Shown here piece by piece: positions 2-44,323 of a DNA stretch of 44,323 bases. The position numbers were made by a program, and so were the translations under genes. A model generated the notes under the pieces. The model saw only the letters and a list, made by a program, of their open reading frames with translations. It was not told where the DNA came from and made no database searches. Within the stretch, counting starts at the first letter, position 1. Each line of letters begins with the position of its first letter. Source of the stretch: an uncultured Methanosarcinales archaeon (GTDB taxonomy: Archaea > Nanobdellota > Nanobdellia > Woesearchaeales > BS150m-G63); assembly GCA_964630685.1 (NCBI GenBank), contig CAZVVW010000007.1, positions 1 to 44,323 on the forward strand, in the 5' to 3' direction.

Positions 2-1114
2 ATCATATTACAAGCAACAAAGGGGTTAAGTAAATTACATGCTAAAGGTATTAGGCATAGAGACATTAAACCTTCAAATATACTTGCTTATGAGCAATAT
101 AATGAATGGGCGCTTGGAGATTATGGCACTTCATCTAATCGAGAATCAACTAAAAGCAGAAAAAATGCAGAAACTTTTCAATCGCCTGAATTTAGATTAA
201 ATAAAACAAAGGGAGTATTTAATTATGGATTTGAGGAAGATATATTCCAGTTAGGGGTTACTTATTATATGGTCCTTTCTGATGAAGAAGAAGGATTTGA
301 TAGGGGTTGGCAAAAAAAAGGAGGACCTTTACAAAACCACATTTATACCACTATTGAAAAAATGAATAAAAGTAAAGAAGAAAAATATTTCTTAAAAAGG
401 TTATGTGGAGAAAAGGCGCCAGATTCTAACAAAATACCTAAGGGAAAAACATTAGAAGACTATAGATATACTCACATAAATCAATTTATTGAAGAAGTAG
501 AAAGATATCTGAAAACGGGATCAATTAACAAACCTGTTGTTAAGAAAAAAATTAAAAAATTACCTAAACCACTTGTTAAAAAAGAAGTTGAAACTAAGAT
601 TGTTGAGGGAAATAAATATACTATTCCAAAATCTACACCTCAACCTAAACCAATTATTGAAGATCCTGCAGATCATCCTAATTATCAAAGATTTTTGACA
701 GAACACGATAATTTTTTAAATTGTTTAAATGGCGCAAAAAAAAATAATAATGGAAAATGGGGCACTATCAATCATCAAACAATTGATGGATTAATGAAAT
801 CATGTGACTCTTATTTAATTTGGGCAAATAAAAAAGATGTTCAAAAAGTTCCTCAGAGAAATGCGTTATTTGAATCTGGAAGAAATGAATATGATAAAAT
901 AAGAAATAAAGAATGGGATTTGCTTAAATCATTTGAAGAAGGACTAAATAAAAATGTTACTAAGCCAGATTTAATATATTTTATTAAAACAATATTTTTA
1001 TGGGGTCCGCCATTTACAACCCCTGATAAAGAAAGAGACAAAGGTAAAGCAAGATATGGTTTAAATGAATTAGATAAAATTCCTTATATTAAAGAATTAA
1101 AAAATGGAAAGTAA
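2..1114 (+). CDS. Hanks-type Ser/Thr protein kinase, 5'-truncated by the window edge, with a Lys/Pro-rich linker and an unknown C-terminal domain
   Basis: The frame of ORF 269..1114 is open from base 2 and reads ...KLHAKGIRHRDIKPSNIL...WALGDYG...FQSPE...EEDIFQLG. These are the catalytic loop HRDxKxxN, a DFG-like DYG, an APE-like SPE and subdomain IX D. Confidence 0.9.
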   Translation: MILQATKGLSKLHAKGIRHRDIKPSNILAYEQYNEWALGDYGTSSNRESTKSRKNAETFQSPEFRLNKTKGVFNYGFEEDIFQLGVTYYMVLSDEEEGFDRGWQKKGGPLQNHIYTTIEKMNKSKEEKYFLKRLCGEKAPDSNKIPKGKTLEDYRYTHINQFIEEVERYLKTGSINKPVVKKKIKKLPKPLVKKEVETKIVEGNKYTIPKSTPQPKPIIEDPADHPNYQRFLTEHDNFLNCLNGAKKNNNGKWGTINHQTIDGLMKSCDSYLIWANKKDVQKVPQRNALFESGRNEYDKIRNKEWDLLKSFEEGLNKNVTKPDLIYFIKTIFLWGPPFTTPDKERDKGKARYGLNELDKIPYIKELKNGK

Positions 1115-2087
1115 AAACCTAGAACAAAAACTTGAAGGGATAATTGGAGAGATTAAATCAGAAATTAAACCAAATGTAAAAAAGTTATGGGAAGAGTATG
1201 AAAATGCTTTAACTGATTGTTATGGGGCAAAATTCAAAGATTATGAGTATGAAAAGGCGTTGGGTGTATTAGAAAAGATAATCAAAGAAGAACCAAATAA
1301 TAGTAAAGTTTGGGTAAAAAGAGGTGATTTGTGTAGTTTACATCTAAAGAGAGATGATGCTTTAAGATGTTATGATAGGGCAATAGAAATAAATCCCAAA
1401 AATACAGATGCTTTAGTTGGAAAAGCAGAAGAATATGAATATGAGGATATGCCTGAAAAAGCATTGAAATTCTACAATAAAGCATTAGAAATAACGCCGA
1501 GAGATATAGATATTCTTGAAGAGAAGGCTTCTTTGTTAATTTATGATTTAGAAAGACCAAGAGAAGCGTTGAAAGTTTATAATCAAATATTGAAAATAGA
1601 TCCTGAAAATGATTTTGCGTGGAATGATAAAGCAGAAATATTGAATTCTCTTGGAGAATATGTTGGTGCACTAAAATGTTCAAACAAAGCAATAGGGATA
1701 GATTCAATTGATGGAGAATACTATTTCCATAAAGGTGTTGCTTTAGATGGACTTGGAAGATTTAAAGAAGCATATGATGCTTATTATTCTGCAGAAATAG
1801 CAAATAAAGCAGTATTTGATAAAGATAATATTCAAATACTGAATAATCAAGGTGCTGCTGCTGCTGAGATTGGAAGATATAATAGAGCGCTACGTTGTTT
1901 CGATAAAGCTTTAGAAATTTCTCCAAGATATAAAAAAGCTAAAAAAAATAAATCGATTGTTTCCAAAGCATTAGAAAAATCAAAAAAACTGCCTGATGGA
2001 TTAATTCCACTTATGAAAAAAGTGTTTTCAAAAGAGTGTGTTTCTATCCCTAAAGAACTAAAAGAAACCGCTATATATCCAATTTAA
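1104..2087 (+). CDS. TPR-repeat protein carrying the shared NLEQKLEGII leader
   Basis: Multiple 34-aa TPR motifs (A..CYDRAIEINPKN..A); N-terminus MESKNLEQKLEGIIGEIK. Confidence 0.9.
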   Translation: MESKNLEQKLEGIIGEIKSEIKPNVKKLWEEYENALTDCYGAKFKDYEYEKALGVLEKIIKEEPNNSKVWVKRGDLCSLHLKRDDALRCYDRAIEINPKNTDALVGKAEEYEYEDMPEKALKFYNKALEITPRDIDILEEKASLLIYDLERPREALKVYNQILKIDPENDFAWNDKAEILNSLGEYVGALKCSNKAIGIDSIDGEYYFHKGVALDGLGRFKEAYDAYYSAEIANKAVFDKDNIQILNNQGAAAAEIGRYNRALRCFDKALEISPRYKKAKKNKSIVSKALEKSKKLPDGLIPLMKKVFSKECVSIPKELKETAIYPI

Positions 2088-2092
2088 TTAAA

Positions 2093-3199
2093 ATGGAAAA
2101 AAACCTAGAACAAAAACTTGAAGGGATAATTGGAGAGATTAAAGAAATAGAAAAAACTGATGTAAAAATAAAATATTCTTCTAAAATAATAGAAAAAATA
2201 AAAAAAAGTACTGTTGCAAAATTAAAATGGCCTTTATTATATGTTGCGGGAACAATGATATTGGGCACAATAATACTGTACTATTCTCCTTCGCCAAACA
2301 AATCTCAAAATCACATAAAAAATAAAGGCACTATTAATGAAATTGTAATAGATTCTACTTTAACAGAAAATATAATGGGAGATTCTAAAGATTCATTAGA
2401 ATTAACTTTAAAAGATGGTCGCTATTGGCACAACAAAGGAATTAAATTACATAATTTAGAAGATTATGAAAGTGCAATTAAATGTTATGATTATGCTATT
2501 GAAATAGATTCTGAAGATGATATTGTCTGGAGTAATAGGGCTGCTGCTTTGAACAGTCTTGGAAGATTTGAAGAATCGGTTGAATCCTATGATAACTCAT
2601 TAGAAATAAGCCTTAATGACCCTATTAATTTTGGTTATAGAATTCTAAATAGTCTTAGATTAAATAACAAAGCATCTGTATTGATTGAGTTGGGAAAATT
2701 GGAAGAAGCAATTGAATCCTATGATAAAGCTATTAAACTTAATCCAGGAGATGAAGTACTCTATTATAACAAAGGGGATGTATTGGATGATCTTAACAGA
2801 AATAATGAAGCTATTGAATGTTATAATAAAGCTATTGAAATTAACCCTTTATCAGGTATATCTTGGAATAATAAAGGAAGGGTGCTAAAGGAACAAAAAA
2901 AATTGGAAGATGCCTTATATTGTTACAATAAGGCTATCGAGATAAATCAAAACAATAGTATGGCTTGGAATAATAAAGGGGATGTCTTAGAAGATCAAAA
3001 AAAATTGGAAGATGCCTTATATTGTTACAATAAGGCTATTGAAATAAATCCTAAAAATGATAGTGCTTGGAATAATAAAGGAAATATGTTTTATAGTGAG
3101 AGGAATACTGAAGATGCTTTAAAATGTTATACTATGGCTGTTGAAATAAACCCTAATAATCAAAATTCATTAAACATGATAAAATTACTGAGTGATTAA
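2093..3199 (+). CDS. TPR-repeat protein with one predicted TM helix, carrying the shared leader
   Basis: N-terminus MEKNLEQKLEGIIGEIK; hydrophobic segment WPLLYVAGTMILGTIILYY; repeated AWNNKG...CYNKAIEINP TPRs. Confidence 0.9.
   Translation: MEKNLEQKLEGIIGEIKEIEKTDVKIKYSSKIIEKIKKSTVAKLKWPLLYVAGTMILGTIILYYSPSPNKSQNHIKNKGTINEIVIDSTLTENIMGDSKDSLELTLKDGRYWHNKGIKLHNLEDYESAIKCYDYAIEIDSEDDIVWSNRAAALNSLGRFEESVESYDNSLEISLNDPINFGYRILNSLRLNNKASVLIELGKLEEAIESYDKAIKLNPGDEVLYYNKGDVLDDLNRNNEAIECYNKAIEINPLSGISWNNKGRVLKEQKKLEDALYCYNKAIEINQNNSMAWNNKGDVLEDQKKLEDALYCYNKAIEINPKNDSAWNNKGNMFYSERNTEDALKCYTMAVEINPNNQNSLNMIKLLSD
2894..3039 (+). repeat. Recent in-frame TPR unit duplication (44-bp exact repeat, 102-bp period)
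   Basis: CAAAAAAAATTGGAAGATGCCTTATATTGTTACAATAAGGCTAT occurs at 2894-2937 and 2996-3039. Confidence 0.9.
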
Positions 3200-3200
3200 T

Positions 3201-3908
3201 ATGAAAGAAAAAAATCTTGAACAAAAACTTGAAGGGATTATTGGATTTTTTAATTCAAGAAACTCAGAGAAAAGGGTTGAAAAATCAAAAAAAAATGTTG
3301 ATGAGATTAGAGATTACAGTATAGACCCTGAAATTGCTAAAAAAAGATACACTGAATATAAAATAGAGATATTTAAGAAGTTAAGTAAACTTTTTGTTGA
3401 TGGAGATATTCATTCTAGAGATGAATTAATTTCAAAAATTAATGGGTGGGCTGGCAATTATTGTAGAGATTTAAGAAAAAGTAAAGATTATGACCACTCA
3501 AGTTATATTAGGGGTTTAGTTGATTTAGGGTTACTCAAAAGAAATAAAGGCGATAGTCTATTTGAAGGGTGTGCTAAAAAAGTGAGTTATGAAGCTCCTA
3601 AAAAATTAGAAAAATCTGCTCAAGAAGATGACCTCATTATTGTAAAAAGAATGAGTGGAAGCCCCTATAACAAACATAAAACAAAAATTCTCAAAGAATT
3701 AAGTGGTGGATTTTCTCCTGGAACTGTTTATTCTAGAGATGATGCTATTTTATTAATTAAAATGCTGGCTGATGATTATGATCCTAATTTGTTAAATCAA
3801 AATGGGTATGATTATATGCATTTATTGAGAGGCTTGATAGATATTGGGCATCTCAATAGAAATAAAACTGGTACCAAATATTGTAAAGGAACTCCAAGAG
3901 ATGAATAA
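3201..3908 (+). CDS. Protein with the shared leader and two tandem DUF2087-like winged-helix domains
   Basis: ATG at 3201 gives MKEKNLEQKLEGIIG. Two internal repeats of F..G..[HY]SRD...DY....RGL[VI]D.G.L.RN resemble the DUF2087 consensus as I recall it. Confidence 0.65.
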   Translation: MKEKNLEQKLEGIIGFFNSRNSEKRVEKSKKNVDEIRDYSIDPEIAKKRYTEYKIEIFKKLSKLFVDGDIHSRDELISKINGWAGNYCRDLRKSKDYDHSSYIRGLVDLGLLKRNKGDSLFEGCAKKVSYEAPKKLEKSAQEDDLIIVKRMSGSPYNKHKTKILKELSGGFSPGTVYSRDDAILLIKMLADDYDPNLLNQNGYDYMHLLRGLIDIGHLNRNKTGTKYCKGTPRDE

Positions 3909-3909
3909 C

Positions 3910-4278
3910 ATGGCAAATAAAAATCTTGAATCTAAACTTGAAGACATTATTAGTGAGATTAAGAAGACCCCTAAAAAAACTCAAACATATGGGCCTTTTG
4001 AAAATGAGCCCTATGAAAACAATAAAAGGTTTAAAAAAAGATATGGGTTACTTAAAGAATGTTACAGAGGATTATTTCATTGTATGGATGATTTTTTTGA
4101 AGTTGATAAAAGGGGGGGAGCATTAAGAAATGTTTTTTTTGGCTCTCTTTTTGCAATATGGTTGGGAACTACAATTACATATTGTAACGGCTGTTTTAAT
4201 GAAGAATCAAATGTTCCTGCTGTAGAAGAAAGGATGGGGTATGAAAACAATTCCGACCAATATGGGGTGGTAGAATAA
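3910..4278 (+). CDS. Small membrane protein carrying the shared leader
   Basis: ATG at 3910, just after the upstream stop, gives MANKNLESKLEDIISEIKK; hydrophobic segment VFFGSLFAIWLGTTITY. Confidence 0.75.
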   Translation: MANKNLESKLEDIISEIKKTPKKTQTYGPFENEPYENNKRFKKRYGLLKECYRGLFHCMDDFFEVDKRGGALRNVFFGSLFAIWLGTTITYCNGCFNEESNVPAVEERMGYENNSDQYGVVE

Positions 4279-4279
4279 A

Positions 4280-4342
4280 ATGAATAAAAAACCTAATTTA
4301 GAACAGCAAATTGAGAGCATAGTTGAATTAAATAAAAAATGA
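4280..4342 (+). CDS. 20-aa leader-only mini-ORF (MNKKPNLEQQIESIVELNKK)
   Basis: The ATG is 1 nt after the previous stop, and its TGA overlaps the next ATG (ATGA at 4339-4342). The sequence matches the array leader motif. Confidence 0.6.
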   Translation: MNKKPNLEQQIESIVELNKK

Positions 4343-5574
4343 AACAATATAAAAACTCGCAAAACCTGGAAACCAAGGTTGAAGGGATTATTGAAAAGAT
4401 CAGATTGCCTAGTCTTGAACGTATGACTAAATTTACTGAATATGATGTTAAAGAAGATATCGTTGTTCCTAAAGGAAGATATGTTGTAGATAAAGATATT
4501 GTTATTAAGAAAGAAGGGGGTTTGAAAATTGCTTCTGGAACTGAATTCTATTTCAAAAAAGATGCTGGAATTGTTGTTTATGGATATTTACAGGCGAAAG
4601 GAACTGGAGAAGAGAGAATTTTATTTTCTTCTTATGGTGATGTATGGAAAAATATATCTATATTTAATTTAGGAGATAAAGAATCTGAGCTTGAGTACTG
4701 TGATATAACAAAAGGAACTGGGAGACTTATTGAAGATTTAATACACTCAAAAAATTCAGAAAAGTTCCTTGGAGAAATGAAAAAATATGATGAACTTGGC
4801 GGAGGCATACTTATTATTAAATCAAATCCTTTGATACAAAATTGTGATATCTATGAAAACCAAGCATTTCATGGTGGTGGAATGTATATCTGTAAATTCT
4901 CTAAACCTCCTTTAGAAAAAACAATTATAGAAAAAAACAAAAGCAAAGTGGGGGGAGGGATTTATATCCTTGAATCTGCACCTCAATTAAAAAATGGTTG
5001 TTATATATCCCAAAATGAAGCCGAATATATGGGTGGAGGTATTTGTGCTTCGAGATCTGGATTATCATTAAATAAAATCTATATAAATTCAAATAGTGCA
5101 GATTCTCCAGGAATTGGGGGGGGGATCTATTTAAGTAATTCTGAATTAAAAATGAATAGTGGAGGTATAAGCAAAAATAATTCCAAAATGGGTGGTGGTG
5201 GTGCTTGGTTTTACAAATCAATCGTGACTATAGAAAATTCAGTAATAGAGGATAATATAACAAAAGGAAGTGGTGGCGGATTATATGCTCGACTTTCTGA
5301 TATTGGTATAGAAAATGCAATAATTGAGAATAATGAAGCAAAAATTGGTGGGGGAATGTGCATAGATAAATGCGATCGATTAGCGATAAGGGAGAACTTA
5401 ATAAATTATAATACTGCTGAAAAAGGTGGAGGTGTTTTTCATAGGGGTTCAGAACCAAAAAGTTTGGGTTGGTTAAAAAATAAAATAGTATATCTTTGTG
5501 GAGACTCAATTAAATTGGATAATAATGTATCTAACAATCAAGTAGATAATATTTATGGTCCTGATAAAAAATGA
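4339..5574 (+). CDS. Right-handed beta-helix protein (Pmp-like GGG[IL]Y / NxA repeats) carrying the shared leader
   Basis: Repeated N.A..GGG[IML][YC] motifs; N-terminus MKQYKNSQNLETKVEGIIEKIR. Confidence 0.85.
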   Translation: MKQYKNSQNLETKVEGIIEKIRLPSLERMTKFTEYDVKEDIVVPKGRYVVDKDIVIKKEGGLKIASGTEFYFKKDAGIVVYGYLQAKGTGEERILFSSYGDVWKNISIFNLGDKESELEYCDITKGTGRLIEDLIHSKNSEKFLGEMKKYDELGGGILIIKSNPLIQNCDIYENQAFHGGGMYICKFSKPPLEKTIIEKNKSKVGGGIYILESAPQLKNGCYISQNEAEYMGGGICASRSGLSLNKIYINSNSADSPGIGGGIYLSNSELKMNSGGISKNNSKMGGGGAWFYKSIVTIENSVIEDNITKGSGGGLYARLSDIGIENAIIENNEAKIGGGMCIDKCDRLAIRENLINYNTAEKGGGVFHRGSEPKSLGWLKNKIVYLCGDSIKLDNNVSNNQVDNIYGPDKK

Positions 5575-5903
5575 AAGATGACCAAAATTTAGAACAAAAA
5601 CTTGAAGGGATTGTTGAACAGATAAAAGTAGATGTTTCAGAAAAAGAAAAAGATTTATTTGAAAAAGCTAAAAAATTATATTTTGAGGGAAATTATGGTG
5701 AATCAATAGAATGTTATGATAAAGCCATTGAAATAAATCCAGAATATAGCTCTGCTTGGAATAATAAAGGGAATGCTTTAGACGAACAAGGAAAATTAGA
5801 ACGAGCAATCGAATGCTATGATAAGGCAATTGAAATAAATCCTGAATTTGATATTGCTAAAAATAATAGAAGAATTGTTTTAGGAGAATTAAATGAAAAA
5901 TGA
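5571..5903 (+). CDS. Short TPR protein carrying the shared leader
   Basis: MKDDQNLEQKLEGIVEQIK followed by two ECYDKAIEINPE TPR units. Confidence 0.88.
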   Translation: MKDDQNLEQKLEGIVEQIKVDVSEKEKDLFEKAKKLYFEGNYGESIECYDKAIEINPEYSSAWNNKGNALDEQGKLERAIECYDKAIEINPEFDIAKNNRRIVLGELNEK

Positions 5904-6388
5904 AAGAAAAAGATAAAAACTCGCAAAACCTGGAAACCAAGGTTAAAGAAATTGTTGGAAAGATCAAAGGAAAAGAAGTAGAATATTTAATCAAAAAAGG
6001 AGATGCTTTTTATGGGGCAGAGAATTTTAAAGAAGCGATTGAGTGTTATGATAAAATTCTAGCGGAAGATCGGGACAATTTGGAAGTTTGGTTAAATAAA
6101 GGAAATTCATTACTTTATTTAAGGAAATTGGATGAATCTATAACTTCTTTTGATAACATTATTAAAACAGGATATTCTAAATATCGTTCTTCAGCATACA
6201 TAGGTAAAGCAGCAGCATTATACGAACAAGAAAAATATGAAGAGGCGGTGGAAGCTATGGAAAAATCAAGGATAAATGACATTGGGGTACGCTTTGCATT
6301 AAAGGATGTTAAAAAAAAGGCAGCATATCAAAAAGCAAAATGGCCTAAAAAGGTTATGTTGAATATTCAAAAACTTTTTTATGATTAA
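5900..6388 (+). CDS. TPR protein carrying the shared leader
   Basis: MKEKDKNSQNLETKVKEIVGKIK; TPR motifs EAIECYDKIL and WLNKGNSL. Confidence 0.85.
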   Translation: MKEKDKNSQNLETKVKEIVGKIKGKEVEYLIKKGDAFYGAENFKEAIECYDKILAEDRDNLEVWLNKGNSLLYLRKLDESITSFDNIIKTGYSKYRSSAYIGKAAALYEQEKYEEAVEAMEKSRINDIGVRFALKDVKKKAAYQKAKWPKKVMLNIQKLFYD

Positions 6389-6516
6389 AAAAAGTGCATG
6401 AGATTATTTGTAAAGTAATGGGGGATATAAAAAAAAGAGAATCTAGTAAATAAACTTTATGAAACATATAGTGATTCTGTAACTATCAAAATCGATTCTA
6501 TTAAGTGATGATAAAG

Positions 6517-6678
6517 AAATAAAAAAATACGCCAACGCCTGAGATTTGGAACCTACGTTTTGGGTCGTAGCCCCCCAGATGCAATATAAGTTAACTTCGT
6601 TAACTTAATTACATAGCACACTCTTTAATGGATTATCTTAATTGAAAAACACAATAAATAAAAAAATACGCCAACGCC
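6517..6678 (-). repeat. 23-bp direct repeat of the tRNA-Ser 3' end plus trailer, flanking a structured element
   Basis: AAATAAAAAAATACGCCAACGCC occurs at 6517-6539 and 6656-6678 (139-bp period). Confidence 0.9.
6541..6612 (-). other. tRNA-associated 72-nt structured element, copy 1
   Basis: The reverse complement GTAATTAAGTTAACGAAGTTAACTTATATTGCATCTGGGGGGCTACGACCCAAAACGTAGGTTCCAAATCTC aligns without gaps to 40651-40722 (56/72 identical). Confidence 0.85.
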
Positions 6679-6784
6679 CGGATTTGAACCGGGAATCCCA
6701 AAGGGACCGGCTGTTTTGGAAAAAACAAATGCTTTTTCTTTTTTCACTCAAGGCCGGCGCAATACCAGGTTATGCGACGTTGGC
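6669..6784 (-). tRNA. tRNA-Ser(TGA) with a 34-nt intron at 37/38 (intron 6713-6746)
   Basis: Acceptor GCCAACG/CGTTGGC with G73; anticodon stem CCGGC/GCCGG around CT-TGA-G; long variable arm; T arm CCCGG TTCAAAT CCGGG; relaxed BHB motif at the intron. Confidence 0.92.
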
Positions 6785-11585: not shown

Positions 11586-12242
11586 ATGAAAAGTAAACTA
11601 GAAAATATATTAAAATTAGTACAAGATAATCCTGTAGATTTTAATAGATTTAGTGAAGATATCCATCAAATTAATCCAGAATCTAGAGTCAAATCTATTT
11701 CTAGTATACTAAGTAGAATTAATATTCCTAAACATTCAACCATTTTAGATATCGGAACTGGTTATGGTGCTGTTTTATTAAATGCGCTAGGCTATAATGT
11801 TATTGGGGTTGAAATTAATGGCCCTAAATTAAAAGAAGGGATGAATTATTGGGGTAAATTAGGTATTGATTTTGAATTAACTAATAATTTGTCTTCTGTC
11901 GTAAATGCTTCTGGAAAATTATATTTTTCAGCAAAAGATTCTAGAAATTTAGGTGAAATTCCAGATTCTTCTATTGATATGGTTACATCTTTTTATCTTA
12001 GTGGATATATGGTTGGAAAAAATGGTGCATATGGAGATGTTGGAAGAATGTTAAAACCTAAAGGAAATTTAACTGCAACCACTCAAGGTTATTCTGATAT
12101 GCCTGAATTTTTTAAAGAATTAATGGTAAATCTTATGGGTGAATTTATGGAACCTAAAAATTTAAAATTAACTTCAACATTTACAATTGATGACCCTTTA
12201 GTTCATGATAAATTTGTGCTTATTTATAGTAAATTAAAATAA
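11586..12242 (+). CDS. Class I SAM-dependent methyltransferase
   Basis: ILDIGTGYG, VIGVEIN, DSSIDMV and RMLKPKG motifs. Confidence 0.85.
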   Translation: MKSKLENILKLVQDNPVDFNRFSEDIHQINPESRVKSISSILSRINIPKHSTILDIGTGYGAVLLNALGYNVIGVEINGPKLKEGMNYWGKLGIDFELTNNLSSVVNASGKLYFSAKDSRNLGEIPDSSIDMVTSFYLSGYMVGKNGAYGDVGRMLKPKGNLTATTQGYSDMPEFFKELMVNLMGEFMEPKNLKLTSTFTIDDPLVHDKFVLIYSKLK

Positions 12243-12297
12243 GAGATAATTAAAATAAGAGATAATTAAAATAAGAGATAATTAAAATAAAAGATAA
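12232..12297 (+). repeat. 16-bp tandem repeat, 4 copies (AATTAAAATAAGAGAT)
   Basis: Three exact copies and one with a single mismatch; the first copy contains the methyltransferase stop codon. Confidence 0.92.
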
Positions 12298-12355
12298 GCT
12301 ATTCTAATAAATTTAAAATTTAAAAAGAAAAAGGATTATTAATAAATTTATTTTA

Positions 12356-14824: not shown

Positions 14825-14878
14825 ACATAAGCTATATATACTCGCGCACATATACATATAAATTAGGGGGATGCATAC

Positions 14879-14992
14879 ATGAACAAATTAGAACAATTAG
14901 CGAATTTAAAACAAGGTTTTGCTAAAGGATTTATTACTGAAAAAGAATTTATAAAAATGGAAGAAAGATTAAAAAAAGAAAGAAACAATTAA
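14879..14992 (+). CDS. 37-aa SHOCT-like microprotein, copy 1
   Basis: MNKLEQLANLKQGFAKGFITEKEFIKMEERLKKERNN; AGGGGG SD and TATA upstream; paralog at 18177. Confidence 0.7.
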   Translation: MNKLEQLANLKQGFAKGFITEKEFIKMEERLKKERNN

Positions 14993-18169: not shown

Positions 18170-18176
18170 ATCAAAA

Positions 18177-18311
18177 ATGAACCCCTTAGAACAATTAGCA
18201 AAATTGAAACAAGGTTTTGTTAAAGGATTTATCACAGAAAAAGAATATAGAGAAATGAAGCAAAAAATATTTCAAAAAAACCAAAAAGATTTCAGAAAAT
18301 ATGCCATTTAA
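18177..18311 (+). CDS. 44-aa SHOCT-like microprotein, copy 2
   Basis: MNPLEQLAKLKQGFVKGFITEKEYREMKQKIFQKNQKDFRKYAI; starts 7 nt after the Lrp stop. Confidence 0.7.
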   Translation: MNPLEQLAKLKQGFVKGFITEKEYREMKQKIFQKNQKDFRKYAI

Positions 18312-26253: not shown

Positions 26254-27633
26254 TTAATCCATATCTAGTTTATTTAACCAGTCTTTCAGCACTTTTGTAG
26301 CTATAACATCATCTTCATTATATTCTAGAATTATCTTTTTCCATTTATGTTGATTAGTATTTAACCATAAACTATACCAAAACATAGATTGAGCACCGCC
26401 AGCTTTTGAATCTCTCCATTTGAATCCAAGATACTTGGCTATTGGTTTGATAGAATAAGAATATAATGGCAACACGACACAATGTGTGACTACTTTATGC
26501 AAATCAATCATGTTACTCATTATTTTATTGAATAATTTTTTATTTGCGCCGTATTTTTCTTTTAGTTTTCTCATAGACCTCAATTCATAACTAGTGTAAT
26601 AATAAATCTTAAAATCTCTAATTTTAGCCATAAAATCTAAAAACTCTTTCCACATTTTTTCTTCATCTTTTGGTTTATCTGCCCAAATCCCATAAAATTT
26701 CTCTTTACCTTTTTGCCTAACTAATAATCCATACAAATAATCTATTCCTAATTCAGTTTCTCCTTCAATATCAAAAAATATCTCTGTTTCAACTTCTTCA
26801 AATTCAGGTTTTTTTAGCACAATAACTTTGTTTTCACTTATAGCTTCAGCCTGCCTTTGAAATTTGATCATATTAATTCCATTCAATCTGTCTGTTTTAC
26901 ATTTAGCAATATCTCTTATTGTTTTGATTCCAACCTTGCTCAGTTTTTCTTTGGCTGTTTTACCTAACCTAGGAATCATAGAAATATCTTGTTTTTTAAT
27001 CATATAAGGGATGCAATATTCTCTCCATACACATTCAGCACATTTACTAACATGTGTGGGGCGTATCTTTTTTCCATTTACTATTTTTCTTATTTCACTT
27101 AGGTTGTGATTATATTTTCCAAGCGCTTTTTTTACATCAAAATCTAGAGTTTCATGATTTATGTTTATTACATGACCTTTTTTAGGTAATCTTTTTTGTA
27201 CTTTTTCTAAAAGTAATGAATAAAACATTACTTGCATTTTGTATTCTTCTTTTAATCGTTTTCCAGATTTAATATCTAATGCAACATAATGATAATCACC
27301 AAATTTAGAATCTCCTTTTCTTTTTTCTAACAAATCAGGCCTTCCAAGCATATCTTTTTCTATTAAAACTCCTTGGTAGATTCGTTCGACACCTAATTCC
27401 ATTAATTCTGATGTTTTTTTGAACGCAGCTTTGGTGTCTTTAATTTTTACTTCTTCAAAATTTTGGTCTTTAATTACTTCTTTTTCGTGAGTTACACCAT
27501 CTTCCATTTTTTTCTGTATAAATTCAGAATAAGGCACTCTTTTTTCTTTGTCTCCATGAAGATTGAGGTAAATCTTAGTTGGACATTGCACATAATTGTA
27601 AAAATGTGTTGCTGTTATCATGCTTTTATTCAA
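26254..27633 (-). CDS. TM0106-family RecB-like nuclease with an RNase H-like C-terminal domain
   Basis: YVQCP, GRPDLL, DIKSG, C..C.W...C, FFDIEG, YSIKPIA and YNEDDV motifs. Confidence 0.9.
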   Translation of the reverse strand: MNKSMITATHFYNYVQCPTKIYLNLHGDKEKRVPYSEFIQKKMEDGVTHEKEVIKDQNFEEVKIKDTKAAFKKTSELMELGVERIYQGVLIEKDMLGRPDLLEKRKGDSKFGDYHYVALDIKSGKRLKEEYKMQVMFYSLLLEKVQKRLPKKGHVININHETLDFDVKKALGKYNHNLSEIRKIVNGKKIRPTHVSKCAECVWREYCIPYMIKKQDISMIPRLGKTAKEKLSKVGIKTIRDIAKCKTDRLNGINMIKFQRQAEAISENKVIVLKKPEFEEVETEIFFDIEGETELGIDYLYGLLVRQKGKEKFYGIWADKPKDEEKMWKEFLDFMAKIRDFKIYYYTSYELRSMRKLKEKYGANKKLFNKIMSNMIDLHKVVTHCVVLPLYSYSIKPIAKYLGFKWRDSKAGGAQSMFWYSLWLNTNQHKWKKIILEYNEDDVIATKVLKDWLNKLDMD

Positions 27634-28239: not shown

Positions 28240-29091
28240 ATGGCATCCATATATAACACAAACCCAAACGAGTTGATAGAGAAAGTGGCTGAACAGCTCA
28301 AAAGCTTTGAAGAGATCAAAGCACCTAGCTGGGCTTCTTTTGTTAAAACAGGACATTCCAAAGAAAGACCTCCAGTTGAAAAAGATTGGTGGTATATCAG
28401 ATTTGCAGCTGTATTAAGGTCAATATATAAATTAGGGCCTGTCGGCGTTTCAAAATTAAGAACTAAATATGGTAGTAAAAAAAATAGAGGCGTAAGACCT
28501 TCACATTTCTATAAAGGTTCAGGAAATATTCTAAGGAAAATTCTTCAACAAGGAGAAAAAGCTGGATTATTAAAACAAGTTGAAAAAGGAGTTCATAAAG
28601 GAAGAATTCTTACTCCAAAAGGAAAATCTTTACTAGATAAAACTGCAGCAAGTATACTTAAAAATAAACCAAAAACATCTACAGTTCCCAAACCAAAACT
28701 TGTAGAGAAAGAAAAAACGGAAACTCAACCTAAAGAAGCTGTTAAACCAAAACCAGCTAAGGAAGAAGAATCTAAAAAAGATTCTTCAGCACTTCCAGAA
28801 AAAGGAAGCAAAGAAGAAATGGTTAAAGAAGCAGAACCAAAAAAAGAACAAAAAAGTAAACGAGAAACACCTAAAGAAGCTGTTAAAGAAGAGATCAAAA
28901 AAGATTCAGATTCTAAAAAAATAGCAGAAGTTGAAAAAGAAGTCAAGGAAATTAAAGAAAAAGAATTAAAAAAAGAAAAAAAAGAACCTCAAGAAAAAAC
29001 AAAAAAAGATAAGGATAAAGAAGAAATTAAAAAAGTTGAAGAGTTAGTAAAAGATATTCAAACTAAAGCAATAAAAAAATCAAAAAAATAA
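28240..29091 (+). CDS. rps19e: 30S ribosomal protein S19e with a long K/E-rich C-terminal extension
   Basis: FVKTGHSKERPP..DWWYIR, GPVGVSKLRTKYG and GRILTPKGKSLLD motifs. Confidence 0.97.
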   Translation: MASIYNTNPNELIEKVAEQLKSFEEIKAPSWASFVKTGHSKERPPVEKDWWYIRFAAVLRSIYKLGPVGVSKLRTKYGSKKNRGVRPSHFYKGSGNILRKILQQGEKAGLLKQVEKGVHKGRILTPKGKSLLDKTAASILKNKPKTSTVPKPKLVEKEKTETQPKEAVKPKPAKEEESKKDSSALPEKGSKEEMVKEAEPKKEQKSKRETPKEAVKEEIKKDSDSKKIAEVEKEVKEIKEKELKKEKKEPQEKTKKDKDKEEIKKVEELVKDIQTKAIKKSKK

Positions 29092-29101
29092 TATTAACAA
29101 A

Positions 29102-29275
29102 ATGGCAACATTCACACACTTAAGCAAAAAGAAAAGATTGGCAAAAAAAGGAAGACGAACTAGATGGGCTCCTTTTTGGACAGTTCCAAAAATATATGGA
29201 TTAGGAAGAAGAATCCACCCAGGAAGGCACACTAGCGTAAAAAGATCATGGAGAAGAACTAACACCAAAGCATGA
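29102..29275 (+). CDS. rpl39e: 50S ribosomal protein L39e
   Basis: MATFTHLSKKKRLAKKGRRTRWAPFW...IHP...KRSWRRT; immediately upstream of L31e. Confidence 0.92.
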   Translation: MATFTHLSKKKRLAKKGRRTRWAPFWTVPKIYGLGRRIHPGRHTSVKRSWRRTNTKA

Positions 29276-29928
29276 TGGCAGACGAAAAACCAATCGAAAG
29301 AACATATAATGTTCCATTAAGAAAAGAATTCTTGAAAGTTCCTAAACACAAAAGGGCAAAAAAAGCAGTTACAGCTTTAAAACAATTCTTAGTTAAGCAC
29401 ATGAAATCAGAAAACATTAAAGTGGGTGCTTATGTTAATAAAGAAATATGGAAAAGGGGAATAAAAAGTCCTCCTCACCATGTCAAAGTTAATGTTACTA
29501 AAGATAAAGAAGGGTTGGTAAATGCAGAACTCGTTGGAGCTCCTGTAGAAACACCTAAAGAAGAAAAAGAGACTAAAGAAGCAAAATCTAAAAAAGATTC
29601 TTCAGCACTTTCAAAAAAAGGAAGCAAAGAAGAATCTAAAAAAGATTCTTCAACCAAAGAAGAATCTAAAAAAGATTCTTCAGCACTTCCAGAAAAAGGA
29701 AGCAAAGAAGAATCTAAAAAAGATTCTTCAACCAAAGAAGAATCTAAAAAAGATTCTTCAGCACTTCCAGAAAAAGGAAGCAAAGAAGAATCTAAAAAAG
29801 ATTCTTCAACCAAAGAAGAATCTAAAAAAGATTCTTCAGCACTTCCAGAAAAAGGAAGCAAAGAAGAATCTAAAGAAAAATCACCTAAAGAATCACCAAA
29901 AAAAGATACAGAAAAAAAAGATGAATAA
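29272..29928 (+). CDS. rpl31e: 50S ribosomal protein L31e with a repetitive C-terminal extension
   Basis: ERTYNVPLR, KRAKKAV, KHMK and IWKRGIKSPP motifs. Confidence 0.97.
   Translation: MMADEKPIERTYNVPLRKEFLKVPKHKRAKKAVTALKQFLVKHMKSENIKVGAYVNKEIWKRGIKSPPHHVKVNVTKDKEGLVNAELVGAPVETPKEEKETKEAKSKKDSSALSKKGSKEESKKDSSTKEESKKDSSALPEKGSKEESKKDSSTKEESKKDSSALPEKGSKEESKKDSSTKEESKKDSSALPEKGSKEESKEKSPKESPKKDTEKKDE
29581..29874 (+). repeat. In-frame 78-bp-period tandem array of palindromic units in rpl31e, with one copy in rps19e (28763-28818)
   Basis: Alternating 48-bp and 30-bp units; six begin with the perfect palindrome GAAGAATCT-AAAAA-AGATTCTTC. Confidence 0.95.
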
Positions 29929-29930
29929 AT

Positions 29931-30545
29931 ATGAGTTTTAAAAACTCCGCGTTAACATTGCTAACTTCTCTTTACTTACTTTCTCCAGTAAAAGCTCAGG
30001 ATACATTTAAATTTAGTGCAAACCATTGGTTATTGCCCGACTGTAAAATTGAGTATTATCAAAGTGCAGATAGTAATAGCGTAAATTTAGAATTAGATGA
30101 ATCTTTAAATATTTTTTATTCTCAAACACCTACAGAAGACGGAGTAAAAATAGTGGAAACAATGGAAGATACCTCTGTTTATGATTGGGATAAACAAACA
30201 AAAAACATTCATTGGATGAGAAAAAATGGAGAATCGGGAGACATCCATAATAACCCTTCTGTAAATTCACTCATTGATATTATAGAAAAAGCACTAAACA
30301 ATAATCTTGAACAAGGGACTCACCAAATTTTAGTGGATGAGGCATTTAGAGATATTTATATTAACAAACAAGAAACAGATTCAACAGTAACACTAACAGC
30401 ACCAATAGATTACAACACTTTACCAATAAAAGAGATAAAAGTAGAATTTTATAAAAAAAATAATAAACTAGAACCAAAAGAAATCTTTATAGATTTCCCT
30501 TGGTACCTAACTTTTTTAGATTATAGATTAAAAAGAGAAAATTAA
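29931..30545 (+). CDS. Putative secreted protein
   Basis: Signal-peptide-like N-terminus MSFKNSALTLLTSLYLLSPVKA. Confidence 0.75.
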   Translation: MSFKNSALTLLTSLYLLSPVKAQDTFKFSANHWLLPDCKIEYYQSADSNSVNLELDESLNIFYSQTPTEDGVKIVETMEDTSVYDWDKQTKNIHWMRKNGESGDIHNNPSVNSLIDIIEKALNNNLEQGTHQILVDEAFRDIYINKQETDSTVTLTAPIDYNTLPIKEIKVEFYKKNNKLEPKEIFIDFPWYLTFLDYRLKREN

Positions 30546-40488: not shown

Positions 40489-40595
40489 GGGCCTGTAGCT
40501 CAGTCTGGTTAGAGCGCTGGTCTTATATGACTACGCTTTAAACAAAAAGCACCTAAGACAGCCAGAAGTCGCGAGTTCAAATCTCGCCAGGCCCA
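40489..40595 (+). tRNA. tRNA-Ile(TAT) with a 32-nt intron at 37/38 (intron 40528-40559)
   Basis: Acceptor GGGCCTG/CAGGCCC; D stem GCTC/GAGC; anticodon stem CTGGT/GCCAG around CT-TAT-A; BHB central helix CTTA/TAAG; T arm GCGAG TTCAAAT CTCGC. Confidence 0.93.
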
Positions 40596-40753
40596 CCTTT
40601 ATATTAATTAATTATTTTAAATTAATGAGATTAATCAAAAAAATTACAAAGTGATTAAATCAATGCAGTTGATTTACATCGCTTCTCTGTGGCTACGGCA
40701 GAAAACGTAGGTTCCAAATCTCGCCAGGCCCACCTTTATATTAATTAATTATT
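40578..40753 (+). repeat. 39-bp direct repeat of the tRNA-Ile 3' end plus trailer, flanking a structured element
   Basis: CAAATCTCGCCAGGCCCACCTTTATATTAATTAATTATT occurs at 40578-40616 and 40715-40753 (137-bp period). Confidence 0.93.
40651..40722 (+). other. tRNA-associated 72-nt structured element, copy 2
   Basis: GTGATTAAATCAATGCAGTTGATTTACATCGCTTCTCTGTGGCTACGGCAGAAAACGTAGGTTCCAAATCTC; homologous to the reverse complement of 6541-6612. Confidence 0.85.
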
Positions 40754-44024: not shown

Positions 44025-44323
44025 ATTTCCGTTGATCCTGCGGAAGATCGCTGCTATTAGGATTCGATTAAGCCATGCGAGTTCAGGCTCCTTCGGGAAC
44101 CGGCAAAATGCTCAGTAACACGTCGATAATCTGCCCTTAGGTCGGGAATAACCTTGGGAAACTGAGGATAATACCTGATATGGAATTATTTCTGGAATGA
44201 TTTTTTCTTTAAAGATTACGCCTAAGGATGAGTCGGCGGCGGATTAGGCTGTTGGCGGGGTAATGGCCCACCAAACCAACGATCCGTAGGGGCCCTGAGA
44301 GGGGTAGCCCCGAGAAGGACACT
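44025..44323 (+). rRNA. 16S rRNA, 5' part (runs off the window end)
   Basis: TTGATCCTG, AAGCCATGC, GCTCAGTAACACG, GGGATAACC, GGGAAACTG and GTAATGGCCCACCA are archaeal SSU signatures. Confidence 0.97.

Follow-up and report, generated by a model that had tools for sequence, protein, structure and literature searches.

Partial copies of tRNA genes are usually taken as scars of integrated viruses or plasmids of kilobase size. Short repeats of other kinds have their own hallmarks: REPs are short palindromes present in tens to hundreds of copies, which are often paired in inverted orientation and lack long target repeats, MITEs carry terminal inverted repeats and a short target-site duplication of 2–10 bp, and in E. 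coli each tyrT repeat unit begins with the last nucleotides of the tRNA. These tyrT units yield the rtT RNA, as described in the accessible part of one source (10.1101/2024.07.17.603846). In the available excerpts of others, partial tRNA copies mark the integration of proviruses and plasmids in archaea (PMC9897764, PMC3293823), and att cores in the T loop are an established route into tRNA genes, as for mycobacteriophage Ms6, whose core lies in the T loop of tRNA-Ala (PMC1762012). Split tRNAs are known in DPANN archaea, according to the accessible text of a genome preprint (10.64898/2026.05.13.725050). The units described here share features with several of these systems. They lie behind tRNA genes in a 44,323-nt stretch of DNA, the whole of which was analyzed and is referred to below as the window.

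The window is archaeal, as judged from an SSU rRNA gene of the archaeal type that starts at 44025 (Rfam scan). Its GC content is 27–33%, and its housekeeping genes include those for TFB, PolB, IleRS, and ribosomal proteins. Two of its three tRNA genes carry a unit. The tRNA-Ser(UGA) gene (6669–6784, minus strand) was read by eye and with a T-arm scan; it contains a 34-nt intron in the canonical place, and its T arm is intact (CCCGG-TTCAAAT-CCGGG). The tRNA-Ile(UAU) gene (40489–40595, plus strand), also with an intron, was identified from the sequence and with the Rfam tRNA model (63.2 bits). ARAGORN reported tRNA-Glu alone in the window and missed both of these genes, and the Rfam scan at the gathering score recovered tRNA-Ile(UAU) and missed tRNA-Ser(UGA). 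The sequence TTTATAAA is located 23–28 nt upstream of each of the three tRNA genes. The introns of tRNA-Ser(UGA) (∼34 nt) and tRNA-Ile(UAU) (∼32 nt) both follow position 37, and the window has a tRNA-Ile with a UAU anticodon.

The initial annotation described a 72-nt element behind both of these tRNA genes, and the underlying alignment was reproduced exactly: the reverse complement of 6541–6612 and 40651–40722 are identical at 56/72 positions without gaps (the best of 200,000 random pairs of 72-mers from the window reached 41/72). The element is real, but the homologous unit is longer than 72 nt, as the 55–60 nt spacer that precedes the hairpin belongs to it. Homology between the window copies reaches 108 nt at 71% identity (6541–6648 and 40615–40722), and of the window's 332 inverted repeat pairs, this one is the longest. 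With at most three mismatches allowed, two occurrences of the 18-mer ACGTAGGTTCCAAATCTC were counted in the window (0.02 expected). The window also contains repeats elsewhere. At 28685–29960, 78-nt tandem repeats are present in seven copies and two blocks within the Lys/Glu-rich C-terminal extensions of S19e (283 aa) and L31e (218 aa). At 12225–12307, a 16-nt AAGAGATAATTAAAAT-like unit is repeated in tandem ∼5 times over the 3′ end of the ORF at 11586–12242 and the downstream intergenic region. A 98-nt direct repeat with 81% identity (14874–14971 and 18172–18269) starts, in each copy, around an ATG just past an ORF, and its copies may be paralogous small ORFs.

A scan with an 18-mer query of one genome for each of 185,579 species returned five loci (L001–L005). 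The scan required an exact 18-mer, so diverged relatives would escape it. Three of the loci (L001–L003) are bacterial singletons that have nothing in common beyond the 18-mer and were rejected as chance matches. The other two, L004 and L005, are both from one Woesearchaeota MAG that is related to the window genome and has three exact-core sites. In L005, a unit is located behind the orthologous tRNA-Ser(UGA), adjoining a TFB gene whose product is identical to that of the window in 310/312 residues. In L004, two tandem units (L004-A and L004-B) lie behind tRNA-Ile(GAU), which itself follows tRNA-Asn. The further copies that the initial annotation proposed to look for are thus present in a related genome, where they follow the orthologous tRNA-Ser and, as a tandem pair, a third tRNA. 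Altogether, there are five copies behind three different tRNA genes in two genomes, all in the tRNA sense and always with the intact tRNA on the upstream side; the evidence base is these five copies from two close genomes. A covariance model that was built from them (R1) and run unfiltered over the window, L004, and L005 (75,988 nt) scored the five copies at 110–139 bits and found no sixth copy. A 29-bit match at L005 1525–1632 was discarded, as it consists of the duplicated spacer alone. Extra copies of tRNA 3′ ends were searched for, and none were found besides those that flank the units. The genes for tRNA-Glu and tRNA-Asn have no unit, so units are present behind three of the five distinct tRNA genes seen.

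Each unit opens with the terminal 10–13 nt of its tRNA, a segment that runs from the T-stem 3′ strand through the discriminator. It continues with an AT-rich spacer of 55–60 nt, the distal 40 nt of which are 50–85% identical between loci (pairwise, over 40 columns). Hairpin 1 of four copies is built of two helices, of 5 and 9 bp, which are separated by a single bulged base on the 3′ side and closed by a triloop. That of L004-B differs in sequence: its helices, likewise interrupted by a bulge, are 8 and 4 bp long, and its loop has 11 nt. A linker of 4 nt leads to the 4-bp stem S1, which encloses GGCTACG and is followed by AAAA and by CGTAG, which pairs back to CTACG to form stem S2. The tail of the unit is GTTCCAAATCTC. 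Its last 21 nt (AAAACGTAGGTTCCAAATCTC) are identical in all five copies and end as a T-loop look-alike with one extra C. This invariant 21-mer abuts the T-stem 3′ strand and thereby sets a fixed right boundary of the module. The structured module is 72–84 nt long, the unit period is 137–151 nt, and the units contain no ORFs.

At tRNA-Ser, all elements are on the minus strand. The first copy of an exact 23-nt direct repeat (6656–6678) comprises the end of the T stem, the acceptor 3′ strand, the discriminator, and 13 nt of the trailer. The AT-rich spacer of 56 nt (6613–6668), which over its 3′ 40 nt shares homology with the other loci (motif AATTAAAGAGATnAATCAAAG), precedes hairpin 1 (6581–6612; 5 bp, one-base 3′ bulge, 9 bp, and triloop). 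The H-type pseudoknot at 6553–6577 is formed by S1 (6574–6577 with 6561–6564) and S2 (CTACG/CGTAG, 6566–6570 with 6553–6557), with an A-rich loop between them, and the invariant 21-mer occupies 6541–6561. The second copy of the 23-nt repeat (6517–6539) again corresponds to the tRNA-Ser 3′ end with its trailer, and a decayed second copy of the spacer follows the second acceptor copy at 6490–6529 (local alignment of 42 nt; 1/500 shuffles scored as high). At tRNA-Ile, on the plus strand, the direct repeat is exact over 39 nt (40578–40616) and includes the end of the T loop, the 3′ strands of the T stem and acceptor stem, and 21 nt of the trailer. It is followed by the AT-rich spacer of 55 nt (40596–40650), hairpin 1 (40651–40682), the pseudoknot (40686–40710; S1, 40686–40689 with 40699–40702; S2, 40693–40697 with 40706–40710), and the invariant 21-mer with its T-loop look-alike (40702–40722). 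The second copy of the 39-nt repeat is at 40715–40753, and weaker similarity to the spacer continues to ∼40767. In agreement with the initial annotation, both window copies are thus followed by the acceptor 3′ strand and trailer of the host tRNA.

The fold of the units is strongly supported by pairing and covariation. In the five model-aligned copies, 96% of 125 cells form standard pairs (29–38% when the partners are slid by 1–3 columns), 9/25 pairs show compensatory changes on both sides, and none of 500 column shuffles reached the observed pairing and covariation values, with the caveat that these figures come from five sequences whose hairpin columns were fitted to the model. The sequences of hairpin 1 in the window copies, its single-base bulge on the 3′ side, and its three double changes were all found as first described, and covariation became stronger in the enlarged alignment: across the five copies, six pairs in the two helices of hairpin 1 (alignment columns 41–77) change on both sides. 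The GNA triloop is present in the two window copies (GAA and GCA) but not in the others, which have AGA, TGT, or an 11-nt loop. The structure 3′ of hairpin 1, annotated initially as a simple second hairpin with a CTACG/CGTAG stem, is better described in another way. S1, which lay outside the structure of the model, is paired in 20/20 cells and has the variants GGG/CCC, CUG/CAG, and CCG/CGG, with two of its four pairs covarying (GC/CG/UA), and S2, whose sequence does not vary, is paired in 24/25 cells. As the two stems are interleaved, the presumed second hairpin corresponds to a single stem of an H-type pseudoknot, the loop of which is A-rich.

The fold also has strand preference. The second pair of hairpin 1 is U·G or G·U in 5/5 copies and would be an A·C mismatch if the other strand were folded. 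The RNA z-scores of the window copies are −2.1 and −2.4 for the tRNA-sense strand (−0.4 and −0.9 for the other strand). When the copies are folded as DNA, the minimum free energy of the sense strand is lower in 5/5 copies, but its z-score is better in only 3/5. Together, the U·G/G·U pair, the RNA z-scores, and the DNA free energies argue for a fold that is selected on the tRNA-sense strand, and this gives importance to a transcript of the sense strand or to an intermediate in which it is single-stranded. The central claim of the initial annotation is genuine: a covarying structured element in the tRNA sense lies behind different tRNAs, and at each site it is accompanied by a duplicated 3′ end of the respective tRNA.

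The exact direct repeats of the five units are 23, 39, 66, 31, and 55 nt long, and the periods are 139, 137, 140, 151, and 141 nt (the first two periods, for tRNA-Ser and tRNA-Ile of the window, are those given initially). On its left, every repeat begins within or beside the T-stem 3′ strand, and its right edge varies; the repeats run through the acceptor strand into up to the whole 55-nt trailer. In L005, the entire spacer is repeated after the second acceptor copy with 52/55 identical positions (0/500 shuffles), and the content between the repeats is therefore the structured module alone, ∼74 nt. Weaker spacer similarity was also detected past the last acceptor copy at tRNA-Ser and tRNA-Ile(UAU) of the window and in L004 (matched by 1/500, 0/500, and 8/500 shuffles, respectively). 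The first 66 nt of the two tandem units of L004 are identical, and their hairpins are identical at 18/37 positions. Since the distance between the tRNA end and the hairpin is constant (55–60 nt) and independent of the repeat length, a simple duplication of the target site, with a stagger that varies, was rejected as unlikely. The arrays fit either n complete units plus a partial one or insertion of a module with duplication of the acceptor strand and most of the spacer. At both Ser loci, the second acceptor copy is followed by T runs, and the Ser trailers contain runs of T6–T7; there is no T run behind the Ile units. The genes downstream of the Ile loci (window, from 40776 onward; L004, from 10215 onward) have first codons that overlap weakly spacer-like sequence (AATTACGAAA, AGATAAA-CAAA; 8/500 shuffles for L004), and their starts may be built on a decayed copy of the spacer.

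Comparison of the two genomes at tRNA-Ser shows that the units diverge faster than their surroundings. The tRNA-Ser(UGA) gene itself is the same as its L005 orthologue at 117/119 aligned positions, the TFB genes share 93.3% of their nucleotides (57/313 third codon positions differ), and the upstream intergenic region is identical at 195/236 positions. The corresponding values are 35/56 for the spacer and 38/56 for the hairpin-pseudoknot segment, so the unit diverges approximately twice as much as the neutral proxies, and its pairing is maintained. The two orthologues at tRNA-Ser are identical at 81/113 positions and are no closer to each other than to the units at other tRNAs (60–84% identity over 112–124 columns across the three tRNA loci). 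Similarity is also mosaic: the Ser unit of the window and L004-A share 27/28 positions in the pseudoknot and 22/32 in the hairpin, and L005 and L004-A share 28/32 in the hairpin. The genes just downstream of tRNA-Ser differ between the two genomes. In the window, at least six consecutive genes at 1100–6000 (kinase-like, TPR, DUF2087, and PMP-repeat) begin with the same ∼60-nt N-terminal coding segment at 62–88% identity (ORF starts at ∼1104, 2093, 3192/3198, 3907, 4339, 5571, and 5900); L005 has a related, differently composed shared-leader cluster downstream of tRNA-Ser, and these genes look like a variable paralogous family. As judged from these alignments, the fast divergence, the lack of closeness between orthologues, the mosaic segments, and the differing downstream genes point to exchange or replacement of units between loci and not to quiet vertical descent.

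No described family was found to include the unit, in agreement with the initial annotation. The Rfam gathering scan of the window, L004, and L005 returned rRNA and tRNA only and matched no family to the element, and at E ≤ 10 the L004 and window Ile loci gave chance rows of 10–29 bits (the cut-offs are 42–143). Alignment of the Ile unit with phage and plasmid collections by blastn gave AT-rich partial matches that covered at most 45% of the query and did not touch the pseudoknot or core. Bacterial-type promoter and terminator scans of the element were uninformative. Inspection of the copies by hand revealed no consistent bulge-helix-bulge, foldable T arm, C/D or H/ACA box, terminal inverted repeat, or short ORF. 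Beyond a GAGAT/ATCTC complementarity of 4–7 nt, there are no terminal inverted repeats, which rules out a MITE, as do flanking repeats of 23–66 nt in place of short ones. Such an element is absent from the titles and abstracts of the openly accessible literature searched and from the accessible text of the Nanobdellota genome preprint (10.64898/2026.05.13.725050).

The co-occurring integrase, HUH nuclease, or reverse transcriptase whose presence the initial annotation had suggested checking is absent from the 98 ORFs inspected over 76 kb. With Pfam, no integrase, transposase, HUH enzyme, TnpB, or reverse transcriptase was detected in 48 ORFs of the window and 29 ORFs of L004 and L005, and comparison of 21 Pfam-negative ORFs with PHROGs gave none of these either, over the 76 kb of the genomes that were covered. 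A RAYT (Y1 HUH) gene was likewise not found in the 48 and 29 ORFs by Pfam or in the 21 by PHROGs, over the same 76 kb. The window encodes a 459-aa protein (26254–27633, minus strand) with Cas4/PD-(D/E)XK nuclease and RNase_H_2 (exonuclease-like) domains, and no CRISPR array was seen in the window.

We tentatively interpret the units as a family of protein-less, non-autonomous cassettes that recombine at tRNA 3′ ends in a Woesearchaeales lineage, a reading that is plausible but short of probable. In a first step, a module would enter behind an intact tRNA gene by recombination, with the boundary between T loop and T stem as the fixed joint, the T-loop-like tail as the element-side partner, and an enzyme acting in trans. 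Homologous recombination between the 23–66 nt flanking repeats, or between copies, would then account for tandem growth, contraction or loop-out, and exchange between loci. What the sequences show directly is the anatomy, the repeats, the covariation, the tandem array, and the fast mosaic divergence; mobility, the joint, and the enzyme are inferred from them. The occurrence of five copies at three tRNA genes in two genomes, each followed by its own tRNA 3′ end, argues for such a cassette, as do the fixed right boundary (the invariant 21-mer) combined with the variable far end of the repeat, the L005 array in which little more than the ∼74-nt module lies between the repeats, and the L004 tandem with identical first 66 nt and differing hairpins. 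Fast turnover relative to the conserved TFB, the mosaic segments, and the changed genes downstream of tRNA-Ser are in line with it, and T-loop att cores and partial tRNA copies are known from integration in the accessible parts of the sources (PMC1762012, PMC9897764, PMC3293823). Against it stand the lack of an integrase, transposase, HUH enzyme, or reverse transcriptase in the 98 ORFs, the low copy number (three exact-core sites in the MAG and nothing more in 75,988 nt), and the absence of anything that covers the module from the phage and plasmid collections. Neither empty sites nor presence/absence polymorphism were observed at the loci of the two genomes. In addition, ∼140 bp is too small for a conventional double-stranded circular intermediate, the near-constant and partly homologous spacer of 55–60 nt suits a fixed functional unit better than random staggered cuts, and the presence of the tRNA-Ser unit in both genomes is also compatible with vertical retention. 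The last two points, together with the invariant 21-mer and the low copy number, suit the main alternative reading, which is possible yet doubtful: the unit would be a gene for a small structured RNA, or a tRNA-trailer RNA, that has a function in the host, with the hairpin and pseudoknot as the functional fold. Its transcription in the tRNA sense would result from read-through or begin at a weak TATA-like box of the spacer. The tRNA 3′-end copy would have arisen as a side product of unequal recombination and would also provide a terminator, in parallel with the E. coli tyrT/rtT units. The compensatory changes (9/25 pairs; 96% pairing compared with 29–38% in controls), the U·G or G·U second pair in 5/5 copies, and the lower values of the sense strand in RNA z-scores and in DNA free energy (5/5) are as expected for an RNA, and the T runs past the second acceptor copy at both Ser loci would serve termination. 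However, the T6–T7 runs in the Ser trailers should stop read-through, the Ile units have no T run after them, the spacer has no TTTATAAA-like box and only weaker AT-rich boxes 24–27 nt before the hairpin, and there is no Rfam match. A trailer RNA also leaves unexplained why homologous units lie behind three unrelated tRNAs, each with the local 3′ end, and it has to accommodate divergence faster than that of neutral proxies. The recombining cassette and the trailer RNA are compatible and not mutually exclusive.

The remaining explanations carry far less weight. A tandem duplication without function, in which the T loop and a sequence that resembles it by chance underwent slippage or unequal crossing-over and the product then decayed, would have the constant period (137–151 nt) with a partial last unit and the tandem copies of L004; it is already disfavored and in our view very unlikely, as the units are homologous at three tRNA loci (60–84% over 112–124 columns), the fold is kept through compensatory changes, and the 21-mer is the same in 5/5 copies while neighboring sequence outpaces neutral divergence. 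The initial annotation had connected the hairpin with HUH enzymes of the REP/RAYT type. A REP/RAYT or IS200/IS605-type hairpin substrate, or a TnpB-type right end with a guide RNA in which the tRNA copy is the guide, would explain the bulged hairpin and, in anatomy only, a structured segment followed by locus-specific sequence, as in guide RNAs. The chances of this are remote, and the proposed link is not supported: the 98 ORFs over 76 kb include no Y1/HUH transposase, RAYT, or TnpB, the direct repeats are 23–66 nt long, whereas those elements leave no long ones, neither the GNA motif nor the loop in general is conserved, and the element ends 40 nt past the hairpin. The copy number is likewise low, with three exact-core sites in the MAG, compared with tens to hundreds for REPs, and with five copies in 75,988 nt, all in the tRNA sense behind tRNAs. 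That the repeated acceptor 3′ strand belongs to a split (trans-spliced) tRNA as its 3′ half, or is an alternative 3′ exon, is barely conceivable, even in a DPANN host, for which split tRNAs are known from the available text of the preprint (10.64898/2026.05.13.725050). A T stem is impossible, as the sequence 5′ of the T-loop look-alike is unpaired with the T-stem 3′ strand, the anticodon-stem strand is missing, and the Rfam tRNA model is silent there even at E ≤ 10; moreover, the upstream tRNA is already complete, and two such pieces lie behind one tRNA-Ile(GAU).

A further reading can be envisaged, which we regard as unlikely: a new archaeal element, a gene-less cassette of ∼140 nt whose sole content is an RNA-like fold (hairpin, H-type pseudoknot, and T-loop mimic), and which would copy itself behind tRNA genes with the T loop as docking point, via a single-stranded or RNA intermediate and a host tRNA-processing or repair enzyme, with no dedicated integrase. 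The whole ‘element’ between the tRNA copies is a structured module of 72–141 nt that is conserved at three tRNA loci. If mobile, the unit would be, to our knowledge, the smallest tRNA-targeting element, and it would provide a handle on recombination in DPANN archaea, about whose mobile elements little is known. As an RNA, it would give archaea a tRNA-linked pseudoknot RNA. In practical terms, the units create partial tRNA copies that are able to confuse tRNA annotation, and they mark a variable genome region downstream of tRNA-Ser.

When the units are compared with known systems, resemblances are found to several of them. Like the ends of REP/RAYT and IS200/IS605 elements, they fold strand-specifically and contain an imperfect hairpin in which one base is extrahelical; unlike them, they have long direct repeats, a low copy number, a variable loop, and no HUH enzyme found among the 98 ORFs, and a pseudoknot and an invariant tail are located 3′ of the hairpin. 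Integron cassettes and their attC sites are similar in being small and arranged head-to-tail next to a fixed attachment point, and in forming, on one strand, imperfect hairpins that contain bulged bases, but in our case an integron integrase was not detected, a cargo gene is lacking, and a tRNA 3′-end copy bounds each unit. The tyrT/rtT units, from which a small RNA is released from the tRNA transcript, are similar in anatomy only: they are also head-to-tail behind a tRNA, and each starts with a copy of the tRNA 3′ end. They differ in showing no homology to our units (0 Rfam families matched), which are from an archaeal host and, homologous to one another, follow three different tRNAs, with the 3′ end of the respective tRNA at each locus. 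With integrase-borne tRNA elements, the units share the intact tRNA on one side and the direct repeat of the tRNA 3′ portion on the other, as well as a proposed joint at the T loop/T stem, and tandem insertions are possible in both (PMC1762012, in its accessible part). However, each of our units is 72–141 nt long and gene-free, with no recombinase in the 98 ORFs over 76 kb, its repeats reach up to 55 nt beyond the tRNA, and the inserted part is a covarying hairpin joined to a pseudoknot.
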